From Gulosibacter sp. 10 (GTDB taxonomy: Bacteria; Actinomycetota; Actinomycetes; Actinomycetales; Microbacteriaceae), in assembly GCF_900163695.1 (NCBI RefSeq), contig NZ_FUIC01000027.1, positions 30,807 to 94,806 on the forward strand: a DNA stretch of 64,000 bases. Direction: 5' to 3'. This document shows, one piece after another, positions 1,996 to 29,295 of the stretch. Position 1 is the first letter of the stretch, and each line of letters opens with the position of its first letter. The position numbers were made by a program, and so were the translations under genes. The notes below the pieces were generated by a model. The model made no database searches. It was not told where the DNA came from and was given only the letters and a program-made list of their open reading frames with translations.

Positions 1996-3417
1996 ATGAA
2001 ATTCGTCTCGACCCGTGGCCGGATGACCCCGGCCGGCTTCTCCGACGTCCTCCTCGACGGCCTCGCCTCCGACGGCGGGCTCGTGGTGCCGAGCGAGATC
2101 CCCGCCATCCCGGCCGAGCGGCTCGAGGAATGGCGCGCGCTGCGCTACCCCGAGCTCGCCCTCGAGATCATCGGGCTGTACGCGACGGACATCCCGCGGG
2201 AGGACCTCGAGCGGATCGTGCGGGCGGCGTACTCCGCCGAGCGGTTCGCCGCGCCCGAGACGGTGCCCGTGACCGACCTCGACGAGCGCATCTCGCTCGT
2301 GGGGCTCTCGGAGGGGCCGACCATGGCCTTCAAGGACCTCGCGATGCAGTTCCTCGGCGAGGTCATGCCGTACGTGCTGCAGCGCGCCGGACGCACCCTG
2401 AACATCCTCGGCGCGACCTCGGGCGACACCGGCTCGGCCGCCGAGCACGCGTTCAACGGCAAGGAGAACATCCGCGTCTTCATGCTCTCGCCGCAGGGGC
2501 GGATGAGCGCGGTGCAGCGCGCGCAGATGTACAGCCTCGACGACGAGAACATCCACAACATCGCCGTGGACGGCAACTTCGACGACTGCCAGAACCTCGT
2601 CAAGGCGATCAACGCCGATGCGGAGTTCAAGGCCTCCCACACGATCGGCGCCGTCAACTCGATCAACTTCGGCCGCATCTGCGCGCAGATCGTCTACTAC
2701 TTCTGGGCCTGGCTGCGGGCGACCGACGACGAATCCCGCCGCGAGGCGCCCGTCTCGTTCGCGGTGCCCTCCGGCAACTTCGGCAACATCTTCGCCGGCC
2801 ACCTCGCGCGGCGCATGGGGCTGCCCGTGCACCGCCTCGTGCTCGCGACGAATGAGAACAACGTGCTCGACGAGTTCTTCCGCACCGGCGTCTACCGGCC
2901 GCGCTCGCGCGAGCTCACCCTCGCGACGAGCAGCCCGTCCATGGACATCTCGAAGGCCTCGAACCTCGAGCGGTTCGTGCGCGAGCTCTTCGGCGAGGAC
3001 GCGGAGGGCTTCGCCGAGCGCTGGGCGGAGCTCGACCGCGAGGGCGTGCTCGACCTCTCGGATCAGCGCGAGGCGCTCGAGCGCGAGCACGGCTTCCTCA
3101 GCGGCACGAGCACCCACTGGGACCGGGTGAACACCATCCGGGCCGAGTTCGAGGCGAACGGGGTGATCGTCGACCCGCACACGGCCGACGGCCTCGCCGT
3201 GGCGCGCCGGCTGACCGACCTGCCCGGCCGCATCCTCGTGCTCGAGACGGCGAAGCCCGAGAAGTTCCGCGAGACGATCGAGGAGGCGCTCGGGGACCGG
3301 ACCCCGCCGCTGTCCGCGGAGCTGCTCGAGCTGCTCGAGCGGCCGCAGCGCACCGTGGACATCGAGAACTCGGCGGAGCAGCTGCGCGACTACATCGACG
3401 CGGCCTGCGAGCAGTAG
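1996..3417 (+). CDS. thrC: threonine synthase
   Basis: N-terminal MKFVSTRG signature typical of ThrC. PLP-fold residues (SGNFGN, TSGDTG). Start taken at the MKF methionine, index 5 of the listed ORF. Confidence 0.9.
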   Translation: MKFVSTRGRMTPAGFSDVLLDGLASDGGLVVPSEIPAIPAERLEEWRALRYPELALEIIGLYATDIPREDLERIVRAAYSAERFAAPETVPVTDLDERISLVGLSEGPTMAFKDLAMQFLGEVMPYVLQRAGRTLNILGATSGDTGSAAEHAFNGKENIRVFMLSPQGRMSAVQRAQMYSLDDENIHNIAVDGNFDDCQNLVKAINADAEFKASHTIGAVNSINFGRICAQIVYYFWAWLRATDDESRREAPVSFAVPSGNFGNIFAGHLARRMGLPVHRLVLATNENNVLDEFFRTGVYRPRSRELTLATSSPSMDISKASNLERFVRELFGEDAEGFAERWAELDREGVLDLSDQREALEREHGFLSGTSTHWDRVNTIRAEFEANGVIVDPHTADGLAVARRLTDLPGRILVLETAKPEKFRETIEEALGDRTPPLSAELLELLERPQRTVDIENSAEQLRDYIDAACEQ

Positions 3418-3447
3418 CCCGCCGGCAGCCCCGGCACGGCGACGCCG

Positions 3448-3490
3448 AAGGGGCCGGGACGTGAGAACCTCTCTCGCGTCCCGGCCCTTT
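3448..3490. terminator. GC-rich hairpin (14-bp stem AAGGGGCCGGGACG / CGTCCCGGCCCTTT) between convergent thrC and MFS genes
   Basis: Near-perfect inverted repeat seen directly. Followed by TTT on the + strand. Sits in the 86-bp convergent gap, consistent with a bidirectional terminator. Confidence 0.5.
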
Positions 3491-3503
3491 CGGCCTCTCG
3501 GGC

Positions 3504-4712
3504 TCAGGCCGTGGCAGGCGCGGCGGCGGCCCGGCGCTTCGGCGCCCACATGACGTACACCGAGGCGATGATCGAGACGACGAGCACGCACACGCTCACG
3601 ATGAGCATCGAGGTGAACTGGCCGCCCGAGCCGTCGATGAGGCCTCCGGCCACGAGCGGGCCGATCGCGAGTCCCGTGCCGATCATCAGGTTGGCCGCGT
3701 TCATGCCCTGCGGGCCGCCGACCTTCGAGACCGCCGACATGAGGAACGGCAGCAGCCAGCTCCACGCGAACTTGAACATCATCGCGGAGATGGCGAACAC
3801 GAACGCGGGCACGCCGCCGAGGAGCAGGAGGATGCTCGAGATCATCAGCCCGTAGCCGATGAGCACGAACCAGCGGTACAGCCTGTGCTCGCCGACGATC
3901 GTCGTGAGGAGCGCGGAGACCACGCCCACGAGCGTCGCGAGCGACAGCATCGTGGAGGCCTCGTCGAGGGTCGTGCCTCCGGCCACGGCCACGTCGGCCA
4001 TGTACGTCCACACGCCGCTGAGGCCGATGTAGAAGGTGAGCAGCGCGGCCATGCCGCCCAGGAGCGGGCCGATCTGCAGCGAGCCCGTGGCGGCCGGGGC
4101 CTCGGGCCGCGGCTCGCCGGCGGTCTCGGCCGAGGACCGGCCGCGGCGCAGCTCGTCGCCGCGGAGCAGCCAGGCGGCGGGGATGATGAGCACGCACAGC
4201 ACCACGAGCGTCCAGTAGATCGCCGAGACCGGCTGCGCCGAGAACAGCGCGGGGAAGATCGCGAGGATGAGCGCCCCCATCGCGAGCTGGGAGGCGACGA
4301 ACACCCCGTAGGCGCGACTGGGGTTCGCGGTCTTCGCGCTGATCGACAGCACGATCACCATCACCGAGCCGGCGCCCAGCGCGGTGAGCCCGCGGATCAC
4401 GACGAGCAGCGCGTAGCTGTCGATCATCGCGGTCACGGCGTTGCCGAGGATGACGATGCCGAGGCAGATGAGGCTGACGACCCGGAGGTCGGTGTTCCTC
4501 AGCCAGAGGAAGGCGGGGATGGTGGCGAGGCTGAAGCAGCCGAGCTCCACCGAGAACACGGCGCCCACCTGGAGGGCGTCGAGCGAGAACTGCTCGCCGA
4601 GCTTGGTCGCGATGACGGGCGCGACGAGCAGTACTGCGTTGAACACCGCGGAGAAGGCGGCGATGTAGCCGTAGGCCCTCCGGTCGGAGAGGCGGGGAGC
4701 GGTAGTGGTCAT
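3504..4712 (-). CDS. MFS transporter
   Basis: 402 aa, about 12 predicted hydrophobic helices. Typical MFS composition. Immediately downstream (11-nt gap) of the amidohydrolase gene on the same strand. Confidence 0.8.
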   Translation of the reverse strand: MTTTAPRLSDRRAYGYIAAFSAVFNAVLLVAPVIATKLGEQFSLDALQVGAVFSVELGCFSLATIPAFLWLRNTDLRVVSLICLGIVILGNAVTAMIDSYALLVVIRGLTALGAGSVMVIVLSISAKTANPSRAYGVFVASQLAMGALILAIFPALFSAQPVSAIYWTLVVLCVLIIPAAWLLRGDELRRGRSSAETAGEPRPEAPAATGSLQIGPLLGGMAALLTFYIGLSGVWTYMADVAVAGGTTLDEASTMLSLATLVGVVSALLTTIVGEHRLYRWFVLIGYGLMISSILLLLGGVPAFVFAISAMMFKFAWSWLLPFLMSAVSKVGGPQGMNAANLMIGTGLAIGPLVAGGLIDGSGGQFTSMLIVSVCVLVVSIIASVYVMWAPKRRAAAAPATA

Positions 4713-6625: not shown

Positions 6626-7399
6626 TCAGGCGGGGAAGGAGGAGCGCCCGGTGTAGCCGAAGTCGGAGAGCAGGTTGACCCCGTTGACGGCTCGCGAGCG
6701 GGGGGATGCGAGATAGGCCACGCTCCACGCGATGTCCTCGGCGCTCTGCACCGGGTAGTCGACGTGCTCGAAGGACTCGACGCCGAGACCCTCTCTGGCC
6801 AGCGGCGTGTCGACGATGGAGGGGCAGACGCTGTTGACGCGGATGCCGTGCGCGTCGTGCAGCTCGACGGCCAGGGCCCTGGTGAGCTGGACCAGCGCGC
6901 CCTTGGAGGCGTTGTAGGCGAGCATCCCCGGCACGGAGACGAATCCCGAGTCGGAGCCGATCAGGACGACGCTGCCACAGGGCGACTCCTTGAGGAACGG
7001 GATCGCGGTCCGCACGGCGACGAACGCGCCCACGACGTTGACGTCGAGCACCTCGCGGAAGGAGTCCGTCGTGACCTCCTCGCAGGCGGCGCCCATCTCG
7101 CCGTCGATGCCGGCGGAGCAGACGAGCAGATCGATGCCGCCGAGCTCGTCGCCGAGATCGCGGACGGCCGCCGTCAGGGCGGACTCGTCGCCGACGTCGG
7201 CGGCTGCGGTGCGCACGTCCCCGGGCTCCCCGGCCAGCTCGGCCCGCGCGCGGGCGAGCCGTTCGTCGCTCCGTCCGATGATGCCCACGACGGCGCCCTC
7301 CGCGGCGTAGTGCCGGGCGACCGCCAGGCCGATGCCGGAGGAGCCGCCGGTCACGACGATGCGGCTCGGGGCGGTGGTGGTGTTCGCGAGTTCTGCCAT
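6626..7399 (-). CDS. SDR family oxidoreductase
   Basis: Start at Met index 96 of the track ORF (MAELANTT...) with an AAAGAGG RBS. The region upstream of that in the ORF is junk-like. TGGSSGIG and YNASKGAL SDR motifs. Confidence 0.8.
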   Translation of the reverse strand: MAELANTTTAPSRIVVTGGSSGIGLAVARHYAAEGAVVGIIGRSDERLARARAELAGEPGDVRTAAADVGDESALTAAVRDLGDELGGIDLLVCSAGIDGEMGAACEEVTTDSFREVLDVNVVGAFVAVRTAIPFLKESPCGSVVLIGSDSGFVSVPGMLAYNASKGALVQLTRALAVELHDAHGIRVNSVCPSIVDTPLAREGLGVESFEHVDYPVQSAEDIAWSVAYLASPRSRAVNGVNLLSDFGYTGRSSFPA

Positions 7400-7592
7400 C
7401 GGTCGGGCCTCTTTCTCGAATGCGTCCTCGTTGACGCGGATACCGTACCCACGTCCGGCGGGGGAAAAGGAATACGAGTTCATTGACCAGACTCCGAGTC
7501 TGATGAATAGACTCGTCTTCCGGACATCGGTCTCCGGGAACAGGATGGGTCCACGCCAGAAACGCTCGCGAAGGCTCCCGAAAGGAACCAGC

Positions 7593-9917
7593 ATGACCAA
7601 TCTCTCCCGCAACGAAGCGCTCGAGCTCGCAGCAGCGGCCCTGCCCTCATTCGGCCTCGCGCCCGACTCCGCCGTCGAGTTCGTCAAGTACCGCGAGAAC
7701 GTCGTCTTCCGCGTCGTCGACGGCGAGGACGCCTATGCGATGCGCGTGCACCGGCTCGATCACCGCACCGAGGCGGAGGTGCGGACCGAGAACGCCTACA
7801 TGCAGCGGCTCGGCGAGGCCGGATTCCCGGTGTCGGAGGTGGTGCCGGCGATCGACGGCGAGCTCTTCGCGGTCGTGGGCGACGGCCGCGGGCGCGAGCA
7901 CCAGATCGACGTGCAGCGCTGGGTCGCGCAGTCCGCGCCCCTGGGCGACATCGCGGAGGCCTGGGAGGGGACCGCCGAGCACGACCCGGAGTTCTTCGCG
8001 GAGCTCGGCGAGCTGTGCGGCGGCTTCCACGCCGTCTCGGCCGAGCTCGGCCGCATCCCGGGCTACTCCCGCAAGCCGTGGGACCTCGACGGCCTCACGG
8101 GAGCGGAGCCGCTCTGGGGCGACCCGCGCCGATTCGCCAAGACCGAGGAGGACCGGGCCGTCATCGACACCGCGCTCGCGAACGTCAGGGCTGAGCTCGA
8201 GGCGCTGGGCACGGGGCCGGAGGCGTACGGCGTCATCCACTCGGACTTCACGCCGGAGAACGTGCTGCTCTCGCCCGGCGGGATGACCCTCATCGACTTC
8301 GACGACTTCGGGGAGGGCTGGTGGCTCTTCGACCTGGCCACGGTGCTGTTCTGGTACCACTGGCATCCGCGCGGCGAGGAGTTCGCCGAGGCGCTCATCG
8401 AGGGTTACGAGCGGCGCTTCCCGATCCCCGAGGCCGCCCGCGCCGCGCTCGGGGGCCTCGTGGTGGCCCGCGCCCTCACCTACTTCGGCTGGGCGGCGGA
8501 CCGCCCCGGCGATGAGACCAGCGAGTTCCACCGCATCGAGCAGTACCCCGCGGTGCTCGAGCTGTGCCGCGAATACAACGACCGCCGGGCGGGCGACCGC
8601 GCCGGCGAGAACGGAGCAACGATGATGACCGACAGCAGCAACGACGACCTCATCGAGCGCCGCAACCGGACGCTCGGCCCCTATTCGCCGCTGTTCTACC
8701 GCGAGCCGCGCCACTTCGTCGAGGGCGACGGCGTATGGCTCACCGACGTGCACGGCGAGCGCTACCTCGACGCCTACAACAACGTGCCGCATGTCGGGCA
8801 CGCGAACCGCCGGGTCGCCGACGCGGCCGCCGAGCAGCTGCGCACCTACAACGTCCACACCCGCTACCTCAGCGAGCCGGTGGTGCGATACGCCGAGGAG
8901 CTGCTCGCCACCTTCGAGTCGCCGCTGGACCGGGTGTACTTCACCAACACGGGCTCCGAGTCGAACGAGCTCGCCCTGCGCATCGCCCGCCACCGCACCG
9001 GCAGCAGCGGCATCATCGTCACCGACCACAGCTATCACGGCAACACCATCACCCTGGCCGCGCTCACCACCGGGCTCCAGGTCTCGGAGCCGCGGGGCGC
9101 GAACATCCGCACGATCCACGTGCCCGACGCCTATGAGGGCGACGAGGCGCAGCTGCTCGAGGCGGCGCTGCGCGAGGTCGACGAGGCGATCGATTCGCTC
9201 GTGGCCGAGGGCTTCGGGGTCTCGGCGCTGCTGATCGAGCCCGTGTTCTCCACCGAGGGGCTGCCGACGGTGCCCGAGGGCTACCTCGCCGGGCTCGTCG
9301 ACCGGGTGCGCGCCGCGGGCGGGCTCATCATCTCCGACGAGGTGCAGGCCGGGCTCGGGCGGCTCGGCGACGACTGGTGGGCGCACCAGGCGACGGGCTT
9401 CGTGCCCGACCTCGTGACGCTCGGCAAGCCGCTCGGCAACGGCTACCCGCTCGGCGGGGTCGTGACCACCGAGGCGCTGCTCGACGACTTCAGCTCGCAG
9501 AACGAGTACTTCAACACGTTCGCCGGCACCCCGGCGGCGGCCGAGGCCGGGCGCGCCGTGCTCGCCGAGATCCGCGACCGCGACCTCGTGAACCGCACCG
9601 GGGAGCTCGGCCGGCACGTGTCCGAGCGGCTGCAGGACCTCGTCGCCCGGCATCCGAACGCGGCCGCGGCCAAGGGCCGCGGGCTGTTCTTCGGCCTCGC
9701 GATCGTGGATGCGCAGGGCCGCCCGGACGGCGCGCTCGCGAAGGAGATCGTCGAGCGCCTCGTCGCCCGGCGCATCCTCATCAGCAAGATCGGCCCCGCC
9801 GACAACGTGCTGAAGATCCGCCCGCCGATGGTCATCGAGCGCGAGGAGCTCGACCTGATCCTCGACGCCCTCGACGAGGCGCTCGCCGAGATCGAGCGCT
9901 CCGCCGCGCGCTCATGA
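7593..9917 (+). CDS. fusion protein: aminoglycoside-phosphotransferase (APH)/hydroxylysine-kinase-like kinase domain + class III (AGXT2-like) PLP-dependent aminotransferase/phospho-lyase domain
   Basis: 774 aa from the ATG at 7593 (AAAGGA RBS). N-terminal half has APH-fold motifs (HSDFTPENVLL, IDFDD). C-terminal half has the class III aminotransferase fold (SGSESNELA, DEVQAGLGRLG, TLGKPLGNGYPLG with the Schiff-base Lys). Confidence 0.8.
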   Translation: MTNLSRNEALELAAAALPSFGLAPDSAVEFVKYRENVVFRVVDGEDAYAMRVHRLDHRTEAEVRTENAYMQRLGEAGFPVSEVVPAIDGELFAVVGDGRGREHQIDVQRWVAQSAPLGDIAEAWEGTAEHDPEFFAELGELCGGFHAVSAELGRIPGYSRKPWDLDGLTGAEPLWGDPRRFAKTEEDRAVIDTALANVRAELEALGTGPEAYGVIHSDFTPENVLLSPGGMTLIDFDDFGEGWWLFDLATVLFWYHWHPRGEEFAEALIEGYERRFPIPEAARAALGGLVVARALTYFGWAADRPGDETSEFHRIEQYPAVLELCREYNDRRAGDRAGENGATMMTDSSNDDLIERRNRTLGPYSPLFYREPRHFVEGDGVWLTDVHGERYLDAYNNVPHVGHANRRVADAAAEQLRTYNVHTRYLSEPVVRYAEELLATFESPLDRVYFTNTGSESNELALRIARHRTGSSGIIVTDHSYHGNTITLAALTTGLQVSEPRGANIRTIHVPDAYEGDEAQLLEAALREVDEAIDSLVAEGFGVSALLIEPVFSTEGLPTVPEGYLAGLVDRVRAAGGLIISDEVQAGLGRLGDDWWAHQATGFVPDLVTLGKPLGNGYPLGGVVTTEALLDDFSSQNEYFNTFAGTPAAAEAGRAVLAEIRDRDLVNRTGELGRHVSERLQDLVARHPNAAAAKGRGLFFGLAIVDAQGRPDGALAKEIVERLVARRILISKIGPADNVLKIRPPMVIEREELDLILDALDEALAEIERSAARS

Positions 9918-10550: not shown

Positions 10551-11090
10551 TCACAGCGCCGCCAGCGCGGCGACCGCGTCCCGGACGAGGGCGCGGTCGG
10601 GCGGAGCGGACTGCAGCGTGCGGTGGATCGTCCAGCCCTCGATGAGCGCGTCGATCGCCACGCGAGCCCGCTCGCCGAAGTGGGGCGCGAGCGACTCGTA
10701 GCTGCGCGCGATCAGCTCGGCGGCCATCGTCCCGACGGCCTCGTCGTGGCCCGCGTACGCGTACATCTCGTAGATCAGCTGCTGATCGCCGCGGTCCGCG
10801 ACCTCCGGGCCGCAGATGATCGTGGTCACCGCCTCGACGGCGCCCTCGCGGTCGAGCGTCTCGGGGAGCAGGGCGGCGTAGCGCGAGGCGAGGGTGTCGC
10901 CGAGCAGCGCGAAGGCGCGCTCCAGGATCTCCTGCAGATCGGCGAAGTGGTACGTGCACAGCCCCGGCGAGACGCCGGCCGCGGCGGCGATCTTCCGATG
11001 TGTGGTCTTGTGCACGCCCTCGGCGGCGATGACCTCGAGCGCGCCGTGCAGGATCGCGGTCGGGCCCTCCGGCTGGGGATTGGCGGGCAT
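10551..11090 (-). CDS. TetR/AcrR family transcriptional regulator
   Basis: 179 aa. HTH TTHRKIAAAAGVSPGLCTYHF. Divergent from the MFS gene at 11222. Confidence 0.8.
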   Translation of the reverse strand: MPANPQPEGPTAILHGALEVIAAEGVHKTTHRKIAAAAGVSPGLCTYHFADLQEILERAFALLGDTLASRYAALLPETLDREGAVEAVTTIICGPEVADRGDQQLIYEMYAYAGHDEAVGTMAAELIARSYESLAPHFGERARVAIDALIEGWTIHRTLQSAPPDRALVRDAVAALAAL

Positions 11091-11221: not shown

Positions 11222-12385
11222 TTGGAGTTCACGCCGCACGTCCGCCGCAACGCCGTCTTCGCGCTGTTCATGATCCCCGGGCTCGCGCTGTCCACCTGGG
11301 TGACGCGCACGCCGGACATCCGGGATCTCGTCGGCGCGAGCACCGCGGAGATGGGGCTCATCCTGTTCGGGCTGTCGATCGGCTCCATGATCGGCGTGCT
11401 CTGCTCCGCGCCGCTCGTGCGACGGTTCGGGACGAGGTCGGTGATCGGCGCCGGGACGACGCTGGTCGTCGCCGGCCTGGCCGGCATCGGCCTCGCGGCG
11501 GCGCTCGCCTCGGGGCCGCTCGTCGCGGCTGCGCTGATGCTGTTCGGCCTGGGCATGGGCGGCGGCGAGGTCGCCATCAACGTGGAGGGCGCCGACGTCG
11601 AGCGGGCGCTCCGGCGGCCGGCCATGCCCGCGATGCATGGCATGTTCAGCGTGGCGGTCACCATCGGCGCCTCGCTCGGCATCCTCGGCAACGCGCTGCG
11701 GGTGCCCATCGCCGTGCACACGGCGGTGCTCGCCGCGGTGTCGGCGCTCGTGCTCGTCGCCGCGCTGCGCCGGGTGCCGCCGGGCACGGGGCGCGCCGGC
11801 CGGAACTCGATGCCAGGGGGCTCCCGCTCGCTCCTCCGGGAGCGCGCACTGCTGCTCATCGGCGTCGTGGTGCTCGCGATGGCCTTCACCGAGGGCGCCG
11901 CCAATGACTGGCTGCCGCTCATCCTCGTCGACGGCCACGGATTCAGCGCGACCGCCGGCGCCTTGGCCTACGCGGGGTTCGCAGCGGCGATGGCGATCGG
12001 GCGGTTCGCGGCAGGGCCCCTGCTGCGTCGGTTCAGCAGGGCCGCGGTGGTGCGCTCGAGCGCGCTCGCAGGCGCGGTCGGCCTCGTGCTGGTCATCTTC
12101 GCGGAGTGGCCGCCCGCGGTGCTGTTCGCCGTGCTGCTGTGGGGCCTTGGCGCCTCGGTCGGCTTCCCTGTCGCGATGTCCGCGGCGGGGGATTCCGGGC
12201 CGGACCCCACCGCCCGGGTGTCGCTCGTTGCGACGGTGGGCTACATCGCGTTCCTGGTCGGACCGCCGGCGCTGGGATTCCTGGGGGAGGCGTTCGGGCT
12301 GCGGCCGACGATGCTCGTGATCGTGGCGCTCCTCGGACTGGCCTTCCTCGCGGCCTCCGCGGTGGGGCGCGGGCGGAAGGATTGA
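11222..12385 (+). CDS. MFS transporter
   Basis: 387 aa, multi-helix hydrophobic protein. Divergent from a TetR gene. Confidence 0.8.
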   Translation: MEFTPHVRRNAVFALFMIPGLALSTWVTRTPDIRDLVGASTAEMGLILFGLSIGSMIGVLCSAPLVRRFGTRSVIGAGTTLVVAGLAGIGLAAALASGPLVAAALMLFGLGMGGGEVAINVEGADVERALRRPAMPAMHGMFSVAVTIGASLGILGNALRVPIAVHTAVLAAVSALVLVAALRRVPPGTGRAGRNSMPGGSRSLLRERALLLIGVVVLAMAFTEGAANDWLPLILVDGHGFSATAGALAYAGFAAAMAIGRFAAGPLLRRFSRAAVVRSSALAGAVGLVLVIFAEWPPAVLFAVLLWGLGASVGFPVAMSAAGDSGPDPTARVSLVATVGYIAFLVGPPALGFLGEAFGLRPTMLVIVALLGLAFLAASAVGRGRKD

Positions 12386-12400
12386 CCTCGGCCTCCCAGA

Positions 12401-12434
12401 GAGTTAGGGTCACCTTAGTTATTGGCCCTAACTC
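12401..12434. promoter_or_regulatory. 9-bp inverted repeat GAGTTAGGG-N16-CCCTAACTC immediately upstream of the tetR-irtA-irtB module
   Basis: Seen directly in the 58-bp gap between the MFS stop (12385) and the TetR start (12444). Weak (11/19) similarity to an IdeR box only. More consistent with a TetR-type operator. Confidence 0.35.
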
Positions 12435-12443
12435 GGGAGGCGC

Positions 12444-13142
12444 GTGGTGACGAACATCGGCGGGAGACCGCGTCGCATCGATCGGCGGGATATCCTCCGC
12501 GTCGGTCTCGGCATCGGACTCCGGGACCTCAGCCTCAACGCCGTGGCCTCAGCGCTCGGCGTCTCCGCGGCGGCGCTGTACCGGCACGTGGACGGGCGAT
12601 GGGGGCTCGAGCAGCTGGTGGGGGAGCACCTGCTCGCCGAGCTGCGCCTGCCCGACGACCCGGAGCGGGACGCGGCGGGGCACCTCGTCGACTTCGGGCT
12701 CGCGCTGCGCGAGTCCGTGCTCGGCCATCCCGGCCTCGCCGCGTACCTGCAGACGCTCTTCCCGCGCGGGGACGGCGGCCGGGCGCTGCTCGTCGCCGAG
12801 ATCGAGGCGCTCGGCCGCCGCGGCTACGCGCCGGCGACCGCGCTGGTGCTCGCGAGCGCCGTCGCCTCGCACACCATCGGCTACGCCGCCGGCGAGGAGA
12901 TCCAGCGGGATCGGGGCGCGGAGCTCGAGCAGCACCGCGATCGCGTGCTGTCCGGGATCATGGCCGACGAGCGGCTCCAGCTCGCGCACACCGACCTGCC
13001 GCAGGTCGACTCGGCGGGCTATTTCCGGCTCGTGCTCATGGCGGTGGTCGACGGGCTCGTGGCCGCCGCGCCGAAGGATCGATCCGTGCACGAGGTGGTG
13101 GCCGCGCTCGAGGCGCGCCACTGCCGAGAGGCGGTGCGCTGA
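12444..13142 (+). CDS. TetR-like transcriptional regulator
   Basis: GTG start preceded by [28 protein letters not shown]. Its stop overlaps the irtA-like start (ATGA at 13140-13144). Confidence 0.7.
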
Positions 13143-15829
13143 TGGCGAAGCGGGGCTTCCAGGGCGCGATCATGCGCGGCTTCGGCGCCCGCGACCACAT
13201 CGCGGTCGTCACGGGCAGGGAGTACCTCGCCGAGCACTTCGTGCGCGTGCGCATGACCTCCGAGACGCTCTTCGACGAGGCGGTGACGGGGCCGGCGGCC
13301 TGGGCCCGCTTCTGGTTCCCCGACCCCGACGGGGGCGAGGCCGAGTACCAGCGCGGCTACACCTTCAGCGAGGCCGATGCGGCCACCGGCGAGTTCGCCG
13401 TCGACTTCGTCCTGCACGAGCCCGCCGGCCCGGCCTCGATCTGGGCCAGGACGGCCGAGCCGGGCTCGGCCGTGCCGGTGCAGGCCGTCGCGACCACCCG
13501 ATTCGACCTCCCGGCCGAGACGCCCGAGGGGTTCCTGCTCATCGGCGACTCCGCGTCGATCCCGGCCATCGGCGGGATCCTCGAGGCGCTGCCCCGAGAC
13601 GTCCCGGTCGAGGTGTACCTCGAGCAGCACGAGGACGCGGACGCGACGATCCCGCTGCCGCGGCATCCCCTCGCGCGCATCCACCGACTGCCGCGGGAGG
13701 GCGCCGACTCGCTGGCCCGCGGCATCGAGGCGCGCGACTGGTCCAACTGGTACGCCTGGATCACGCCGGAGTCCGGCTCCCTCAAGCACCTGCGCACCCG
13801 GCTCCGCGACGAGTTCGGGTTCCCGAAGTCGGAGATGCACCCCCAGGCGTACTGGATCGAGGGCCGCTCCATGGGGAAGATGCGCAACGAGGACGCCGCG
13901 GATGCGGTGCCCGCGGCCGCATCCGTGTCCGAAACCGCGACCGTTCCCGGCGTCGCCGCGGGGGCCGACGGCGCGCGATCGCCCGAGCCGCAGCCCGAGT
14001 CCCGGCCACAGCCCGAGCCCGCCGCCTCCGCGCCCAGGGGCGAGTGGCGGGCGAACGCGGCCGGGCGGCTGCTCGCGCCCCTGCGGATCACCTTCTGGCT
14101 CGCGGGGATCCTGCAGGGCATCGTCACGCTCGTCGAGCTCGCGCCCTTCGTCCTGCTCGTCGAGCTGTCGCGGCTGCTGCTCGAGGGCGCCGAGCCCGCG
14201 CGGCTCTGGACGGTGGGCCTGTGGGCGGCGGGGCTCATGGCCGCGGGCGCGCTGTGCTCGGCGGGGCTGCTCCTCTGGCTCCACGCGGTGGATGCGCGGC
14301 TCTCGAGGGACCTCCGCCGCCGACTGCTCGGCAAGACGGCCCGCCTGCCGCTCGGCTGGTTCGACGCGCGAGGATCGGGCGGGGTCAAGCAGCTCATGCA
14401 GGACGACACGCTGTCGCTGCACTACCTCGTGACCCACGCGGTGCCGGACGCCGTCGCCGCGGCGCTCGCGCCGATCGCCGTGCTGGTGTACCTCTTCGTC
14501 GTCGACTGGCGGCTCGCGCTCGTCCTGCTCGTGCCGGTGCTCGTCTACGTCGTGACGATGTACGGCATGATCGTGCGCAGCGGGACGCGGACGCGCCAGG
14601 CGGTGGCCTGGTCCGAGCGCATGAACGAGGAGGCCGGCGCGTACCTCGAGGGGCAACCCGTGGTCCGCGTCTTCGGCGGGGCCGCGGCCTCCGGCTTCCG
14701 AGCGGCGCTGGGGGAGTACATCCGCTTCCTCGACGCCTGGCAGCGGCCCTTCACCGGGCAGAAGACGGTCATGGACCTCGCGACCCGCCCGGCGACCTTC
14801 CTGCTGCTCATCCTCGGGGTCGGCGCCCTGCTCGTGACCGGCGGCTCGATGGATCCCATCGCGCTCCTGCCCTTCCTGTTCCTCGGGACCACCTTCGGCG
14901 CGCGGCTCCTCGGCATCGGCTACGGACTCTCGGGGCTTCGGGAGGGGCTGCTCGCGGCCAAGCGCATCCAGGTGGTTCTCGACGAGCCCGAGCTCGAGAC
15001 CCGTCCGGCGGAGGCGCCCGCGGCGAAGGGGCCCGTGGGCGAAACGGCCCCGGGGCTCGTGGAGTTCGAGGGCGTCGGATTCGCCTACCGCCCCGGGGCG
15101 CCGGTGCTGCAGGGCATCGATCTGCGGCTCGAGCCGGGCACCGTCACCGCGCTCGTCGGCCCGTCCGGCGCGGGCAAGTCCACCCTGGCCGCCCTCCTCG
15201 CGCGCTTCCACGACCCCGTCGACGGCGCCATCCGCGTCGGCGGCGCGGACCTCCGCGAGCTCGGCGCCGACGAGCTGTACTCCCGCGTGGGCTTCGTCTT
15301 CCAGCAGACGCAGCTCGTCCGCGGCACGGTGCGGGAGAACATCGCCCTCGCCGTCCCCGACGCCGACGACGACCGGGTGGTCGCGGCGGCGCGGGCCGCG
15401 AACATCCACGAGCGGATCCTGCGCCTCCCGGACGGGTACGAGACGGAGCTCGGCCCCGGAGCCGCGCTCTCCGGCGGCGAGCAGCAGCGGCTCACCATCG
15501 CCCGGGCGATCCTCGCCGACTCGCCGGTGCTCGTCCTCGACGAGGCGACCGCGTTCGCCGACCCCGAGTCCGAGCACCTCGTGCAGCAGGCGCTGAGCCG
15601 CCTCACCGCCGGTCGCACGGTGCTCGTCATCGCCCACCGGCTGCACACGATCACCCGCGTCGACCGGATCGCCGTGCTCGAGGAGGGGCGCCTCGTCGAA
15701 TCCGGGACGCACGACGAGCTGCTCCGGCGCGACGGCACCTACCGCAGACTCTGGCACGCCGGCGGCTACGAGGAGCGCCCCGCCCGGGCATCCGAGCCGG
15801 CGGCCACCGGGAAGGAGACCCGCGCATGA
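13142..15829 (+). CDS. irtA: IrtA-like siderophore importer subunit: N-terminal siderophore-interacting (FAD-binding, ViuB/SIP-like) domain fused to ABC exporter-fold transmembrane domain and ATPase
   Basis: 895 aa. N-terminal about 250 aa has the SIP/FAD-binding RxYT motif (QRGYTFSE). A six-helix TMD follows. C-terminal NBD has Walker [10 protein letters not shown], the LSGGEQQR signature and Walker B VLVLDEAT. Confidence 0.85.
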
Positions 15830-17559
15830 TCCGGACGTTCCTCGACCTGCTGCCGAGCGGCAGCCGCGCGCGCCTCGCAGCGCACCTGGCACTGACCCTG
15901 CTGAGCGTCGCGCTGCGCGCCGCCGGCATCGTGCTCCTGGTGCCCGCCCTCGCCGCGCTGTTCGGCCCCGAGCCCGCAGGAGCCTGGCCGTGGATCGGCG
16001 CACTGGCGGCCGCGACCGTCGCGGGCTGGATCGTCGACTGGGTCGTGGCCCGCATCGGCTTCGACCTCGGCTTCGGACTCCTCGAGCACGGGCAGGCCGC
16101 CGTCGCGGAGCGCATCGCCCGAATCCGGCTCGGCTGGTTCGACGTCGAGCATGCGGCGGCCGCGCGACGCGCCGTGGCGGCCACCGGCCCGGAGCTCGTC
16201 GGGCTCATCGGCTATCTCGTGACCCCGCTGCTCAGCGCCGTGCTGCTGCCGATCGCGATCGGGGTCGCGCTCCTCCCGATCGCGTGGCCGCTGGGCGTCG
16301 CCGCGCTCATCGGCGCACCGCTCCTGCTCGGCGCCTTCTGGGCCTCCTCCGCCCTCGGCCGGCGGGCGGACGCCGAGGCGGCGGCGACGAACAGCGATCT
16401 CACCGAGCGGATCGTCGAATTCGCCAGGGTGCAGCAGGCGCTGCGGGCCTCGCGTCGGGTCGAGCCGGCGCGCAGCAGCGCGGGCGAGGCGCTCGCCCGC
16501 CAGCACGGGGCCGGCATGCGCCTGCTCCTGATGCAGGTGCCGGGGCAGATCGTCTTCAGCCTCGCGACGCAGCTCGCGCTGATCGTCCTGGCCGGCACGA
16601 CCGTGCTGCTCACCACCGGCGGAGCCGTGAGCATCCCCGAGGCGATCGCGCTCATCGTCGTGATCGTCCGCTACCTCGACCCGTTCCTCTCGCTGGGCGG
16701 GCTCGCCCCCGGCCTCGAGTCGGCCTCGCGCACGCTGCGCGACATCGGGCGCGTGCTCGACGCCGAGCCGGTGCGCGAGGGCGCCGAGCGCGTGCCGGCC
16801 GCCGACGCCCCCGCGATCGAGCTCCGGGGGGTCGGGTTCCACTACGGCGACCCGGCGCAGCCCGTGCTGGAAGGGCTCGACCTCCGGATCGAGGCGGGCA
16901 CGACCACCGCGATCGTCGGCCCCTCCGGCTCGGGCAAGAGCACCGTCCTGGCGCTCATCGCGGGCCTGCACGAGCCGACCTCGGGGCGGGTGCTGGTGGA
17001 GGGCGTCGACCTCGCCGCCCTCGATGCGGGCAGCCGCGCCGCGCTCATCACCATGGTCTTCCAGCAGCCCTTCCTCTTCGACGGCACGATCCGCGAGAAC
17101 GTGCTCGTCGGCGCCCCGGGCGCCCGGGAGGCCGCGCTCGAGCACGCCGCACGGCTCGCCCGCGTGGATGCGGTCGTCGCGGGCCTGCCCCGCGGCTGGG
17201 AGACGCGTACGGGCGAGGGTGGCGCATCGCTCTCCGGCGGGGAGCGGCAGCGCGTCTCCATCGCGCGGGCGCTGCTCAAGCCGGCGCCCGTCCTGCTCGT
17301 GGACGAGGCGACCAGCGCGCTCGACACCGAGAACGAGGCGGCCGTGGTGGCCGCGCTGGAGGAGGACCCCAGGCGCCGCACCCGGGTGATCGTCGCCCAC
17401 CGGCTCGAGAGCGTCCGGCGCGCGGACCGGGTCCTGTTCCTCGAGGAGGGCCGGATCGTGGAGGACGGGCCGGTGGAGGCGCTCCTGCGGGCGAGCGGTC
17501 GGTTCGCCGAGTTCTGGCGGCGGCAGGACGCGGCCTCGGGGTGGCGGATCCGCGACTAG
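15826..17559 (+). CDS. irtB: IrtB-like ABC transporter permease/ATP-binding subunit
   Basis: 577 aa. ATG overlaps the irtA-like stop (ATGA) and is preceded by GAAGGAG. TMD plus NBD ([28 protein letters not shown]). Confidence 0.85.
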
Positions 17560-22657: not shown

Positions 22658-23950
22658 TCAGCGCCCCGCCGCGGCGTCGATCGCCCGGACGAGCCCATCG
22701 GGGAGCAGCGCCTGCCACCAGTGCGCGTCGTGCCCGCCGACGGCGGTGTCGAAGGAGAGCAGGCCGCCCTGCACGCGCAGCAGCTCGGCGGCCTGGCGGA
22801 TATCCCGGAACAGGTCCCATTCGAGCACTCCGCCCTGGAGGACGAGCGGGGAGGGCCGTGCCGCGGCGGCGCGCTCGCCGAACCAGGTGCCCCGGCCCTC
22901 GCCGAACCGGCCGCTGTTGGGCCACCAGAACGACGGGGACTGCGCGACCCCGGCCAGCACGAGGTCGGGGTCGCGGGTCGCGGCGAGCGCGGTGAAGAGC
23001 CCGCCGAGGCTCTGCCCCGCGAGGATGAGGCCGGCGCTCCGCGGGGCTCCCGCCGCGCGCACCGCTTCGAGCAGCGCGCGCATCGCCTCGGCGTCGGCCG
23101 TGTAGTCGACCGTCCGCTGCCGGGGGCCGCCGGACTCCAGCAGGAGCACGTGGACCGGCTCGCAGCCGCCCGCATCGATGCGTCGCTCGAGCTCCGCGAC
23201 GATCGGGTACTGCTCGTGCCACACCTCGCCGTCGAGGAGCAGCACGGCGGGCGACTCCGGGGTCGCGCGGGGATGCGACCAGCGGTGCAGCGCGAGCGGC
23301 TCGCCGTTCGAGGGGCTCGGGATGCGCACGGGCCCGTCGAGCTCGGCGCGCTCGGCGAGGCGCAGCTCCGGGGCGCCCGGCCCGCGGCCGACGGCCAGGC
23401 GCACGGGGCCGAGCTTGTTCGGCGCGTACTCGCGCGCGTGCGGATCCTCGACGAGCCGGGCGCGCAGCCCGGCCGCGAGCGCCATGTCGACCGGCGCGTG
23501 GAGCCGCGGCGCGGGCAGCGGCGAATCGGGGAGGACGAACTGATACGTGCCGAGCCAGGCGGACGGCAGCTCGAGCGTCAGCGAGTGCAGCCGGGTCTCC
23601 GCGATCGGCGCGAGGGCGGTATCGGCCGGGTCGAGGATGTCGCTGATCTTGTTGGCGAACAGCAGGACTCCGTGGGGCGCCTCGCCGTGCCAGAGGAAGG
23701 TGACGAGGACCTCGCCGTCGTCCCCCGCGGCCGGCTCGACGAGCGGGGTCCCCTGGGCGCGCAGGGCCGTCGCGAGCTCCGCCGCCCGCCGCTCGCGCTC
23801 CTCCGGGCCGGCGATCACGGCGAGCTCGGCCCGCACCGCCTCGACGCGCGGCGATTCGGCCACGGGCAGCGGCCACGGGCGGATCGAGTGCGGCGGCATG
23901 GTGGGATCGCGGCGGGCGCCGTGCTGCGGTGCGGTTCGTGCTGCGGACAT
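22658..23950 (-). CDS. enterochelin-esterase-like (Fes/IroE family) alpha/beta hydrolase
   Basis: 430 aa with a GAAGGAG RBS. C-terminal esterase domain has the nucleophile elbow GQSLGG. An N-terminal domain precedes it, as in Fes. Located at the distal end of the siderophore ABC operon. Confidence 0.7.
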   Translation of the reverse strand: MSAARTAPQHGARRDPTMPPHSIRPWPLPVAESPRVEAVRAELAVIAGPEERERRAAELATALRAQGTPLVEPAAGDDGEVLVTFLWHGEAPHGVLLFANKISDILDPADTALAPIAETRLHSLTLELPSAWLGTYQFVLPDSPLPAPRLHAPVDMALAAGLRARLVEDPHAREYAPNKLGPVRLAVGRGPGAPELRLAERAELDGPVRIPSPSNGEPLALHRWSHPRATPESPAVLLLDGEVWHEQYPIVAELERRIDAGGCEPVHVLLLESGGPRQRTVDYTADAEAMRALLEAVRAAGAPRSAGLILAGQSLGGLFTALAATRDPDLVLAGVAQSPSFWWPNSGRFGEGRGTWFGERAAAARPSPLVLQGGVLEWDLFRDIRQAAELLRVQGGLLSFDTAVGGHDAHWWQALLPDGLVRAIDAAAGR

Positions 23951-24009: not shown

Positions 24010-25131
24010 CTACCGGTCGTCGGCGCGGAGCCGGCTCGCGAGCGTGCCGGGCCCGTATCCGGCGGGGAATCGTCCGGCGGCGACGAGGGCCGGGACGACC
24101 TCCTCGGCGAAGAGCTCGAGGGAGCGCCAGGAGCCCATGGGCAGGGCGATGACGCCGTCGGCCGCGCCCGCGTCGAGCCGCTCGAGGATGCGATCCGCGG
24201 CGGCGCGCGGGGTGTCGGCGACGGTCCAGTGCCGGACGTGAGCGGGCGCGCGGATCCCGCTGCGCTCCGCCGACTCCCGGGCCTCCTGCCGCGTCTCGGC
24301 CAGCCAGAGCGAGAGCCCGGGCAGGATGCGGGGCGAGGGGCGCCCGGCCGCGGCGGCGAGCCGGGCGGCCTCGCGACGGAGCCGGATGCCGTCCTCGGGC
24401 TCCGCGGTCATGGCGAAGATCGCATCGGCGCGGCGCGCGGCGAATGCCAGCGAGGCCGCGGAGCCCCCGGCGTGGAGGAGCGGCAGCGCCGACTCCTCGA
24501 ACGCCGGCGCGGTGAGCGGGCCGGTCGCGCGGAACGGCCCGTGGGGCTCCGCCGTGCGCACCGCGCCGGGGTCGGCGAACTCGCCCGACTCCCGGTTGAG
24601 CCGGAGCACGCCGGCGGGGAAGGTGGCCCGCAGCTCCTCGACGGCCGCGACGAACTCCTCGGCCCGGCGGTACGGGTCATCGACCGGCGGGACGTCGGGG
24701 AAGCGGCCGGGATCGGCGAGCGAGGTGACGACGTTCCAACCGGTCCGGCCCTCGGAGAGCCGGTCGAGCGACTGCAGCTGCCGGGCGGCGGAGTACGCCT
24801 GCGCGAACGTCGAGGAGAGCGTGGGGACGAGGCCGATCCGGGAGGTCGTCGCGGCGAGCGCGCTCATCACGACGATCGGGTCGAGCGAGGCGAACCCCGG
24901 CTCGCGGGACATCGGGGCGGGATCGAGCACGATCGCGTCCGGGCGGAACACGAAGTCGAGCCCGGCGGCCTCGGCGAGTCTCGCCGCCCGCAGCGGGAAC
25001 TCGAGCGAGAACATCGTCTCGACGCCGCTGTCCCGGCGCCGCCAGGCGTCGCCCTTCAGCCAGGTGGGCGAGAGCGAGAGGCCGATGACGGCGCGCTCGC
25101 GAGCCGCCGGGACGCCGTCCGCGGCCGTCAC
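24010..25131 (-). CDS. LLM-class (luciferase-like) flavin-dependent monooxygenase/oxidoreductase
   Basis: About 373 aa. LLM signature LDRLSEGRTGWNVVTS. GTG start overlaps the ABC ATPase stop (GTGA). The N-terminal extension in the 600-aa track ORF was rejected. Confidence 0.75.
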   Translation of the reverse strand: MTAADGVPAARERAVIGLSLSPTWLKGDAWRRRDSGVETMFSLEFPLRAARLAEAAGLDFVFRPDAIVLDPAPMSREPGFASLDPIVVMSALAATTSRIGLVPTLSSTFAQAYSAARQLQSLDRLSEGRTGWNVVTSLADPGRFPDVPPVDDPYRRAEEFVAAVEELRATFPAGVLRLNRESGEFADPGAVRTAEPHGPFRATGPLTAPAFEESALPLLHAGGSAASLAFAARRADAIFAMTAEPEDGIRLRREAARLAAAAGRPSPRILPGLSLWLAETRQEARESAERSGIRAPAHVRHWTVADTPRAAADRILERLDAGAADGVIALPMGSWRSLELFAEEVVPALVAAGRFPAGYGPGTLASRLRADDR

Positions 25132-25952
25132 GAGGAGGGGGCCGCGGTGCTGCTGGCGATCGGCACGACCATCGGCGTCTCGAACACGGGATCGCTGAGC
25201 ACCCGGGCGGTGAGGCCGAAGACGTCCTCGAGCAGGGGCTCGGTGAGCACCTCCTCGGGCCGGCCGCTCGCGGCGAGCGCGCCGTCCTTCATCACGACGA
25301 GATGATCGGCGTACCGGGCGGCCTGGTTCAGGTCGTGCAGCACGAGCACCATGGTGCGCGACTCCTCGCGGTTGAGGCGCCGGCAGAGCTCGAGCACGTC
25401 GAGCTGATGGGCGATGTCGAGGAACGTGGTCGGCTCGTCGAGGAGCATCGTCGGGGTGTCCTGCGCCAGCAGCATCGCGATCCAGACCCGCTGCCGCTGC
25501 CCGCCGGAGAGCTCCTCGACGGCGCGGTCCGCGAGGTCGATCACGCCAGTCGAGCGCATCGCGAGGTCCACGGCGCGCTCGTCGTCCTGCGACCACTGCT
25601 GCAGCATCCGCTGATGCGGGAACCTGCCGCGGGCGACGAGATCCGCGACGGTGATGCCGAACGGCGCCGTCGAGGACTGGGGGAGCAGTCCGAGGCGCTT
25701 CGCGAGCGTTTTCGGGGCCAGCGAGCGGACGTCCTCCCCGCCGAGCAGGACGCGCCCGGCATCGGGGACGAGCAGGCGCGAGAGCGCGCGCAGGAGGGTC
25801 GACTTGCCGCACGCGTTCGGGCCGATGATGATCGTGACCTCGCCCTCGGGGATCGAGACGGTGAGATCGCGCGCGATCTCGCGGGCGTCGTAGGAGAGCG
25901 TGACGCGCTCGGCGTGGAGCGAGGAGGGGGATGGCATTGGGGATCCTTGCAT
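25128..25952 (-). CDS. iron-siderophore ABC transporter ATP-binding protein (FepC/FecE-like)
   Basis: Walker A GPNACGKST, signature LSGGQRQR, Walker B LLDEPT. An alternative start at 25937 is preceded by AAGGA. Confidence 0.9.
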   Translation of the reverse strand: MQGSPMPSPSSLHAERVTLSYDAREIARDLTVSIPEGEVTIIIGPNACGKSTLLRALSRLLVPDAGRVLLGGEDVRSLAPKTLAKRLGLLPQSSTAPFGITVADLVARGRFPHQRMLQQWSQDDERAVDLAMRSTGVIDLADRAVEELSGGQRQRVWIAMLLAQDTPTMLLDEPTTFLDIAHQLDVLELCRRLNREESRTMVLVLHDLNQAARYADHLVVMKDGALAASGRPEEVLTEPLLEDVFGLTARVLSDPVFETPMVVPIASSTAAPSS

Positions 25953-25953
25953 G

Positions 25954-27000
25954 TCAGACCTGCTTGGAGCGGGTCAGGAGCCAGATGAGGTAGAAGCCGC
26001 CGATGATGCCGGTGATGCGGCCGATCGGCAGCGTCGCGGTGACCGGCAGCAGCTGGCCGATGAGGTCGGCGACGAGGAGCATCGCGGCGCCCATCGCCCC
26101 GGCGCTGAACACCGGCATGGACCGCGAGCGCGAGAGGCGGATGACGAGCTGCGGCGCCGCGAGCGCGATGAACGCGATCGGGCCGGCCGCGCCCGTGGCG
26201 AGCCCGGCGAGCACCACGGCGGCGAGCATGAGCAGCAGCCTGGTCCGCTCGACGCGCACGCCGAGCTGCTGCGAGAGGTCGTCGCCCATCTCCATGAGGG
26301 AGGCGCGGCGCCCGAGCGCGCCGATGAACGGCACGATGAGGACCACGCCGATCATGACGGGCAGGGCGTGGCCCCAGTTGCGGGCGTCGAGCGAGCCGGA
26401 GAGCCAGAGGTTCGCGGCGATGGCGTTGTCGAGCTCGCCCAGCACGAGCATGAGCCCGTTGAGCGCGCCGAGCACCGCGCCGACCCCGATGCCCACGAGC
26501 ACGAGCCGGTAGCCGCCCGTCACCCCGCCCTTGCGGGAGAGCAGGTACACGGCGGCGGCGGTGAGGATGCCGCCCGCGACCGCGCTCAGGGCGATCTCGA
26601 GCGGGGTGCCCTGGAAGATCACGATCTGCGTGATCGCGCCCGTGGCGGCGCCGGTCGTGAAGCCGATGATGTCCGGCGAGCCGAGGGCGTTGCGCGAGAC
26701 CGACTGGAAGACGGCGCCGGAGACCCCCAGCGCGGCGCCGGCGAAGATCGCGGTGAGCACGCGGGGGAGGCGCAGGTTCTGCACCACGTGCGTATTGCGC
26801 CCGTCCTCGCCGCCGAAGAGCGCCGAGAGCACGTCGCCCATGGAGATGTCGAGGCTGCCGACGGTCATGGCGAAGACGCCGAGGACGAGCAGCAGCGCGA
26901 GCAGCACCGCGGTGACGGCGACGAGCCGCGGCGAGACGAGCACGGAGAAGCGCCGGGTGCGCCAGACGGCGCGGCGGGGCGGGGCTTCGGTTCGGGTCAC
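25954..27000 (-). CDS. iron-siderophore ABC transporter permease (FecCD family)
   Basis: 348 aa. FecCD-type hydrophobic profile. 1-nt gap to the ATPase gene. Confidence 0.85.
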   Translation of the reverse strand: MTRTEAPPRRAVWRTRRFSVLVSPRLVAVTAVLLALLLVLGVFAMTVGSLDISMGDVLSALFGGEDGRNTHVVQNLRLPRVLTAIFAGAALGVSGAVFQSVSRNALGSPDIIGFTTGAATGAITQIVIFQGTPLEIALSAVAGGILTAAAVYLLSRKGGVTGGYRLVLVGIGVGAVLGALNGLMLVLGELDNAIAANLWLSGSLDARNWGHALPVMIGVVLIVPFIGALGRRASLMEMGDDLSQQLGVRVERTRLLLMLAAVVLAGLATGAAGPIAFIALAAPQLVIRLSRSRSMPVFSAGAMGAAMLLVADLIGQLLPVTATLPIGRITGIIGGFYLIWLLTRSKQV

Positions 27001-29064: not shown

Positions 29065-29168
29065 GATCGTCCTTTCGGGGGTCGACGATGCGTCGAAGGC
29101 CGGCACCGCGGCGGCGAGGGATTCGCGTGGCCGTGGAAGGGCCGGATTCGCGCATCACTGAGCATTGG

Positions 29169-29230: not shown

Positions 29231-29290
29231 GGGCTGAAAAACAGCGAGGGGCCGGCGCCGCGATCAAGCATCGCGGCGCCGGCCCCTCGC
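29231..29290 (-). terminator. intrinsic terminator: perfect 21-bp stem (GCGAGGGGCCGGCGCCGCGAT / loop CAAGC) followed by a U-tract on the minus strand
   Basis: Perfect inverted repeat at 29244-29264 and 29270-29290, seen directly. Minus-strand downstream sequence is TGTTTTTCAG. Lies 6 nt after the AKR stop codon. Confidence 0.65.
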
Positions 29291-29295
29291 CGTCG

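Follow-up and report, generated by a model that had tools for sequence, protein, structure and literature searches.

Gulosibacter sp. 10 carries, in the 64-kb stretch of DNA analysed here (the window, which is also what our genome-level scans of this organism covered), an orthologue of the mycobacterial siderophore importer IrtAB that is preceded by a gene for a TetR-fold regulator. We propose, with a probability of about 0.6, that tetR, irtA and irtB form one translationally coupled, tricistronic operon and that the DNA in front of it is a composite control region, in which an IdeR/DtxR-type iron box adjoins an operator of the operon's own TetR and the two would bring about double repression. 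An initial annotation of the window had put the importer under TetR rather than IdeR. One half of that claim stands, in that there is a dedicated, coupled TetR-fold regulator with a palindrome of its own. The other half does not, because the left arm of the inverted repeat in question falls within a 19-mer whose position is orthologous to that of the irtA iron box, which is kept in loci without tetR. As far as sequence comparison goes, the evidence favours control by both regulators over replacement of one by the other.

Composite control region upstream of tetR

A contig scan with one genome per species yielded 80 IrtA loci, with 59–70% identity, from across the Actinomycetota. In 27 of the 80 loci, irtA is preceded by a tetR of 216–253 aa, and the stop of tetR overlaps the start of irtA or lies right next to it. 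These loci come from Mycobacterium asiaticum, M. scrofulaceum, Rhodococcus, Streptomyces, Micropruina, Leucobacter, Brachybacterium, Micromonosporaceae and others, and look-ups based on TetR found tetR-irtA-irtB also in Amycolatopsis alba and Brevibacterium. Aligning 30 promoters of tetR-irtAB loci brought out a shared element of about 31 bp, nnnnGTTAGGCTnCCCTTAGTTA-N7-TAACTTA, at a fixed distance before tetR. The palindrome AGTTA-N7-TAACT has symmetric columns in this alignment that are 93–100% complementary, with AGTT-N9-AACT as the symmetric core.

Counting matches of at least 9/10, 25 of the 27 loci with tetR have the palindrome, against none of 49 loci without tetR (Fisher p = 4e-18, for loci that are not phylogenetically independent). 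Among 28 matches in the 826 kb of loci, 27 are at tetR promoters. In the window, the 10/10 match occurs once, and no second copy was found elsewhere in the 64 kb. Loss of tetR goes along with decay of the right half-site, and the iron box stays, as seen in Phytohabitans suffuscus versus P. maris, in many mycobacteria and in the M. tuberculosis complex. Because the palindrome and tetR co-occur, we assign the palindrome to the TetR of the operon as its putative operator.

The 7-nt spacer of the palindrome (12422–12428 in the window) holds a G-run, nnGGGGG, in most of the 30 promoters, and it reads as the complement, CCCCCTA, in Micromonosporaceae, locus L052 and Amycolatopsis, as if an asymmetric centre had been flipped. 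A TetR homologue from Kribbella (L082, 3897–4000; 50% identity) is not beside irtAB and is divergent from a PF00756 esterase gene. It has a near-identical AAGTTA...TAACTT palindrome, CTAAGTTAGTAACATAACTTTG, with a spacer that is one nucleotide shorter and no adjacent iron box. This TetR family may control other siderophore-processing genes.

To score iron boxes, we used the IdeR/DtxR consensus in a strict (TTAGGTTAGGCTAACCTAA) and a degenerate (TWAGGTWAGSCTWACCTWA) form and counted mismatches, as the loci hold only about 10 boxes outside irtA from which a weight matrix could have been built. The initial annotation had given the similarity to the IdeR consensus as a weak 11/19, which holds in its register, but the best register, GAGAGTTAGGGTCACCTTA, matches the strict consensus at 12/19 and the degenerate one at 14/19 and is the second-best site in the window. 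Across the loci, box positions 5–10 and 15–19 are near-invariant and the left outer pentamer is degenerate. The best orthologous boxes, GTAGGTTAGGCTCACCTTA and AATGGTTAGGCTAACCTTA, have two to three mismatches to TWAGGTWAGSCTWACCTWA, and about 50 of the 59 sites with three mismatches or fewer in the 826 kb of the 80 related loci are the irtA promoter box. In loci without tetR, the box is kept directly upstream of irtA, usually with three mismatches or fewer. Reading the region in the window as two overlapping iron boxes was rejected, with the right half matching at only 6–9/19 by hand comparison.

The best site in the window is a canonical box, CTAGGCAAGGCTAGCCTAA, which shows that this genome has an IdeR/DtxR-type regulon. 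It stands upstream of an operon for a FecCD-type siderophore ABC importer (25128–29156, minus strand) with four genes, for a binding protein, two permeases and an ATPase. A hairpin with a perfect 24-nt stem (29241–29293) separates CTAGGCAAGGCTAGCCTAA and this operon from a neighbouring aldo-keto reductase gene.

In M. tuberculosis, irtA is repressed by IdeR (PMC11779899, PMC9132128), and genes for iron uptake bear one box over the promoter (PMC11779899; PMC9132128; bioRxiv 10.64898/2026.07.13.738276). The irtA promoter of an M. tuberculosis-complex genome reads TTGACC-TTCGGTAAGGCAACCCTTAGTTT, and its box, which has three mismatches, was assigned by our consensus scan; a published iron-box sequence for Rv1348 was not found in the literature. 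In related loci, the box sits between TTGAC-type −35 elements and a candidate −10 element, TAGTT(T/A). The mycobacterial counterpart of the candidate −10 in the window is TAGTTT, 17–18 nt downstream of TTGACC or TTGACA. Locus L081 has TTGACA-N18-TAGTTT.

These elements fit a scheme in which we infer which protein goes with which site, where the −10 and the transcription start lie, how repression works and what the ligand is. An iron-loaded IdeR-type repressor on the iron box, which lies across the promoter, would shut the operon when iron is plentiful. TetR bound to the palindrome, over the −10 and start region, would shut both the operon and its own expression (autoregulation). A small-molecule ligand, most plausibly the transported siderophore or a derivative, would release TetR. 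In this genome, the long RNA hairpin described below would in addition stop or silence read-through from the upstream MFS transporter gene.

Several observations weigh against this scheme. With five mismatches, GAGAGTTAGGGTCACCTTA belongs to a class of matches expected 0.7 times per window in shuffles and is not significant alone, and it departs from the consensus at position 11 and in its left outer pentamer (GAGAG). The candidate −10, TAGTTA, does not end in the usual T, and no −35 can be made out. Boxes are weaker in loci with tetR (median of four versus three mismatches, p = 0.016, uncorrected for phylogeny), so iron control may be relaxed where TetR is present. In a metagenome-assembled genome (MAG) of the Propionibacteriaceae (L077, 3130–4010), tetR has no AGTTA-N7-TAACT before it and ends 66 nt before irtA, with a canonical box, ACAGGTTAGGCTAACCTTC, in between. 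Because the box in the window is weak, iron control is presumed here, and it may be weakened in this genome. The identity of the TetR ligand is pure conjecture by analogy.

Coordinates of the features discussed (positions in the window)
Feature	Position	Strand	Remarks
MFS transporter gene	11222–12385	+	Pfam MFS_1 2e-23; upstream, outside the tetR-irtA-irtB unit
Extended inverted repeat / RNA hairpin	12383–12450	+	contains the 9-bp repeat; from repeat arms and folding
Iron-box-like 19-mer GAGAGTTAGGGTCACCTTA	12399–12417	+	candidate IdeR/DtxR site; 5 mismatches to TWAGGTWAGSCTWACCTWA; position orthologous
Possible −10 hexamer TAGTTA	12416–12421	+	suggested by the 30-promoter alignment
Palindrome AGTTA-N7-TAACT	12417–12433	+	putative operator of the operon-encoded TetR; 10/10 match
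tetR ribosome-binding site GGGAGG	12435–12440	+	from the sequence letters
tetR	12447–13142	+	231 aa; alternative GTG start 12444; stop TGA 13140–13142
irtA	13142–15829	+	895 aa; SIP/FAD domain, linker, ABC exporter-fold membrane domain, ATPase domain
irtB	15826–17559	+	577 aa; partner half-transporter
Canonical iron box CTAGGCAAGGCTAGCCTAA	29169–29187	+	best site in the window; upstream of the FecCD-type siderophore ABC importer operon

Importer pair and TetR-fold regulator

On the alignments, the pair is clearly an IrtAB orthologue with an intact siderophore-interaction domain. The initial annotation had described the 895-aa product as a siderophore-interacting FAD domain fused in front of an ABC membrane and ATPase module, and the Pfam profiles bore this out for all four domains: FAD_binding_9 (1.2e-11) and SIP (2.9e-26), both above their cut-offs, ABC_membrane and ABC_tran. 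IrtA aligns with M. thermoresistibile IrtA (PDB 6TEJ_A; 1197 bits, residues 4–881), over its full length with M. tuberculosis IrtA (7WIU_A; 1143 bits), with the isolated domain structure 6TEK (344.9 bits) and with YbtPQ (6P6I; 303 bits). IrtB aligns over its full length with 7WIU_B (702 bits) and 6TEJ_B (664 bits); Pfam detects ABC_tran in it, and its membrane domain is evident from the full-length alignment to the IrtB structures.

The RGYTFS motif named in the annotation is present at IrtA residues 71–76. The FAD- and NAD(P)H-binding residues of the N-terminal domain, whose loss would have spoken against the assignment, are kept: the flavin and nucleotide motifs R71-x-Y73-T74, H92-EPAGPAS and GDSASIP are common to IrtA of the window, of M. 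tuberculosis and of M. thermoresistibile. IrtA H381, H427 and H432 align with H393, H439 and H444, the triple histidine that binds zinc and couples ATP hydrolysis to import (PMC11779899). In IrtB, the positions that match Q249, which contacts mycobactin, and A256, in the crevice, are conserved. The IrtA/IrtB architecture that had been claimed is confirmed by these profiles, alignments and residues, and the two products are predicted to form a heterodimer of two adjacent ABC exporter-fold half-transporters.

The partner half-transporter overlaps irtA as had been noted, through ATGA at 15826–15829. The same ATGA had been ascribed to the tetR stop and the irtA start, but that junction is TGATG (13140–13144), in which the stop (13140–13142) and the ATG (13142–13144) overlap by 1 nt. 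TGATG is conserved in nearly all tetR-bearing loci.

That the gene directly upstream of irtA is TetR-like is borne out by its position, a fold model and structural matches. The product is 100% identical to the database entry "TetR family transcriptional regulator [Gulosibacter sp. 10]", and database names are generic only. Its Pfam TetR_N score, 21.3 bits, is below the 24-bit cut-off; PF00440 is on record for some members of its family. In an alignment of 40 homologues, the helix-turn-helix motif LSxNAVAxxLGVSxxALYRHV is kept in every orthologue. An AlphaFold2 model built with these homologues (pLDDT 94.8) has 12 helices and an all-helical C-terminal domain, and the best Foldseek matches of the model are TetR(D), ActR and SimR (probability 1.00, TM up to 0.72). 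As modelled, the regulator has the TetR fold, and the structural match is unambiguous.

A YxQxLFPRG motif is also conserved in the 40 homologues. The invariant C-terminal block Y100-x-Q102-x-x-F105-P106-R107-G108, together with H79, D70-D71-P72 and R125-G126-Y127, provides candidate ligand-pocket residues. TetR(D), ActR and SimR control efflux pumps and sense the molecule that their pump carries, and what TetR senses is a metal chelate, tetracycline-Mg. Because these relatives sense the molecule of their pump, the transported siderophore, or its iron-free form, is the most economical guess for the ligand here, which by this analogy we hold as a tentative possibility.

Erosion of tetR across the Actinomycetota

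With tblastn, remnants of tetR came to light upstream of irtA in 14 loci without an intact copy (L014, L015, L024, L025, L029, L038, L043, L044, L051, L065, L068, L071, L078 and L080), among them Micromonospora, a Gulosibacter MAG and many Mycobacterium. Remnants in so many loci point to repeated independent loss of tetR rather than gain.

The M. tuberculosis complex belongs to the same picture. In GCA_030574035.1 (L084, 2783–3003), which was found via the PDB sequence of M. tuberculosis IrtA, the stretch of about 190 nt from the irtA promoter and iron box to the irtA start is an eroded tetR. Relic pieces align with intact mycobacterial tetR, namely patches of the helix-turn-helix (MRGLSISAVAAQLGVSA), a piece from the middle and the 3′ end, ...GAGAGGACCGCTGATG. 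The last of these is kept as the irtA ribosome-binding site, and the right operator half-site is deleted. In the same record (3001–4465), irtA is cut at 359 aa, irtB is absent and a gene for a short-chain dehydrogenase stands about 1.5 kb past the start of irtA; together, these findings point to an importer deletion of about 3 kb.

It is possible, though we would put it at distinctly less than even odds, that TetR is a cytoplasmic sensor of the transported siderophore, either ferric or iron-free, and that a two-key control by low iron together with substrate is ancestral in the Actinomycetota and was repeatedly lost, including in the M. tuberculosis lineage. If the widespread tetR-irtAB form were ancestral and ligand-responsive, gating of siderophore uptake by its substrate could be put directly to the test in Gram-positive bacteria, and the long untranslated irtA leader of M. 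tuberculosis would be what is left of a dead regulator gene. Natural comparison strains for asking what the loss of the second lock brought as a gain are M. asiaticum and M. scrofulaceum, which have tetR intact, and other mycobacteria, which do not. In bacteria that do not make mycobactin, TetR could also be used to find what IrtAB homologues transport.

No link was found between tetR and adjacency of the mycobactin gene mbtK, which is beside irtA in only six tetR-less loci. Three records labelled Microbacterium, Brachybacterium and Frigoribacterium sp. JB110 (L064, L067 and L070, from position 3268) are 98–99% identical over at least 7.3 kb of tetR-irtAB and downstream DNA. The identity of the Brachybacterium record (L067) to the other two begins within the iron box. 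Such similarity suggests that the cassette moved horizontally in recent times or that the bins carry wrong labels.

Competing readings, known systems and neighbouring genes

The 9-bp inverted repeat of the initial annotation is real, as GAGTTAGGG (12401–12409) and CCCTAACTC (12426–12434) are perfect complements with 16 nt between them. It is not its full extent, for the arms are 12 nt long with one mismatch (12401–12412 / 12423–12434) and are flanked by GCCTCCC/GGGAGGC (12391–12397 / 12435–12441). Nor is it the only conspicuous upstream element, as had been stated, since the conserved iron-box-like 19-mer and the AGTTA-N7-TAACT palindrome are there too. GTTAGG, the core of the iron box, makes up the left arm, and the TAACT half-site of the palindrome makes up the right arm; most loci have these short cores in complementary form, and the flanks by which the repeat gains its length are peculiar to this genome. 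As a conserved operator, the repeat was rejected because its symmetry centre is not common to other loci in the 30-promoter alignment. In mycobacterial loci, CGGTAAG pairs with CTTACCG about a centre that is 2 nt away.

RNA folding of 12380–12460 gave a hairpin at about 12383–12450 (−40.9 kcal/mol, z = −5.8; none of 200 shuffles equally stable), whose stem covers the MFS stop codon and the tetR ribosome-binding site and start codon. Conservation of this hairpin across loci was rejected, because most have z from −1.7 to +1.8 and strong stability is confined to the window and a few mycobacteria. No canonical terminator or E. coli-type promoter was called at 12200–12600, and the hairpin is without a T-tract. 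GC-rich hairpins without a T-tract are common in the window, several of them in intergenic gaps. The hairpin probably serves as a terminator of this kind, or as an insulator, that overlies the operator region and keeps transcripts of the MFS gene from reading through.

Control by TetR alone, through GAGTTAGGG-N16-CCCTAACTC and in response to a ligand, would mean that the operon of this genome has escaped iron control by IdeR. The weakness of the box (12/19 strict, five mismatches degenerate), the tendency to weaker boxes beside tetR and the perfection of the 9-bp repeat with its extension to 12 nt are in line with this. We consider it unlikely because other loci do not keep the outer repeat in the same register and most of them show no pairing of this kind; what is conserved as a symmetric core is AGTT-N9-AACT, and the left arm of the repeat belongs to a box that loci without tetR retain. 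For one TetR dimer, a gap of 16 nt, 25 bp from centre to centre, is also unusual. It is likewise improbable that the repeat acts chiefly as the RNA hairpin, ending MFS transcription or hiding the tetR ribosome-binding site and start, with its operator look being secondary. The stability of the hairpin, its stem over the MFS stop codon and over GGGAGG and GTG of tetR, the gap of just 61 nt between the MFS gene end and the tetR start and the many similar hairpins of the window speak for such a role, which would be compatible with the double repression that we propose as an added layer. However, without a T-tract it is not a canonical terminator, and the central 31 bp are kept in 30 loci whose upstream genes are unrelated, the majority without a stable hairpin, so that a hairpin cannot explain this conservation.

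The exporter fold of the proteins and the control of efflux pumps by TetR(D), ActR and SimR could suggest that the pair is a TetR-controlled exporter for drug or metabolite efflux and not a siderophore importer, the more so as Gulosibacter is not known to produce mycobactin. This is very unlikely given the full siderophore-interaction domain with its FAD and NAD(P)H motifs, the conserved zinc triple histidine and IrtB Q249/A256, which are needed for import by IrtAB, about 60–70% identity to characterised IrtA and IrtB, the iron-box-like site at the promoter and the siderophore uptake genes nearby. We give no more credence to an iron repressor that controls irtAB alone, with TetR as a passenger that regulates itself or distant genes. 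M. tuberculosis irtAB is controlled by IdeR without any TetR, and tetR was lost many times with irtAB retained, as such a passenger role would allow. Against it stands the TGATG overlap with irtA, conserved as described above. In addition, there is a single palindrome between the promoter and the operon and no second one in the window, so any binding there affects all three genes.

With respect to known systems, the window shares with the IdeR-controlled mycobacterial IrtAB (M. tuberculosis Rv1348/Rv1349; M. thermoresistibile; PDB 6TEJ, 7WIU and 9FXC) the two-gene architecture, the N-terminal FAD-binding domain on IrtA, the Type IV exporter fold, the zinc histidines, IrtB Q249/A256 and an iron-box-like 19-mer at the orthologous promoter position. 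In contrast to these, it has an intact tetR as first cistron and a TetR-associated palindrome that abuts the box, whereas tetR of the M. tuberculosis complex is an eroded relic, with the right half-site of the palindrome missing. Its box is weaker than that of the M. tuberculosis complex (five versus three mismatches), and its host is a member of the Microbacteriaceae without known mycobactin. IrtAB is indispensable to the virulence of M. tuberculosis, where the importer is regarded as being under the control of IdeR alone.

The yersiniabactin system YbtPQ, with the regulator YbtA, is likewise an exporter-fold siderophore importer, and it combines the iron repressor Fur with a dedicated siderophore-responsive regulator. 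Unlike the regulator of the window, YbtA is an AraC-type activator; YbtPQ itself lacks a fused reductase domain and comes from another phylum. TetR(D)/TetA, ActR/ActA and SimR/SimX provide the closest structural relatives of the window regulator and, as we propose for that regulator, have a palindromic operator across a transporter gene's promoter; in the TetR family, the transported molecule is usually what releases the repressor. They are divergently transcribed and control exporters, whereas the regulator of the window is co-transcribed and translationally coupled with an importer and has its promoter in common with an iron box. We found no paper on TetR regulating irtAB in the literature. 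IrtAB and its control by IdeR are already well known; the composite control region, the strict association of palindrome and tetR and the repeated erosion of tetR (14 loci and the M. tuberculosis complex) appear to be undescribed.

Among the neighbouring genes, the MFS transporter gene has a divergent TetR of its own (10551–11090, minus strand; TetR_N 2.6e-10), with which it forms an apparent classic regulator-pump pair that is separate from the irtAB unit. A gene for an enterochelin-esterase-like protein with Enterochelin_N and Esterase domains (22658–23950, minus strand) lies 5 kb from irtB, which makes the window rich in iron-siderophore functions. On the plus strand, at 7332–9917, an 861-aa open reading frame encodes a phosphotransferase (APH) domain fused to a class-III aminotransferase domain.

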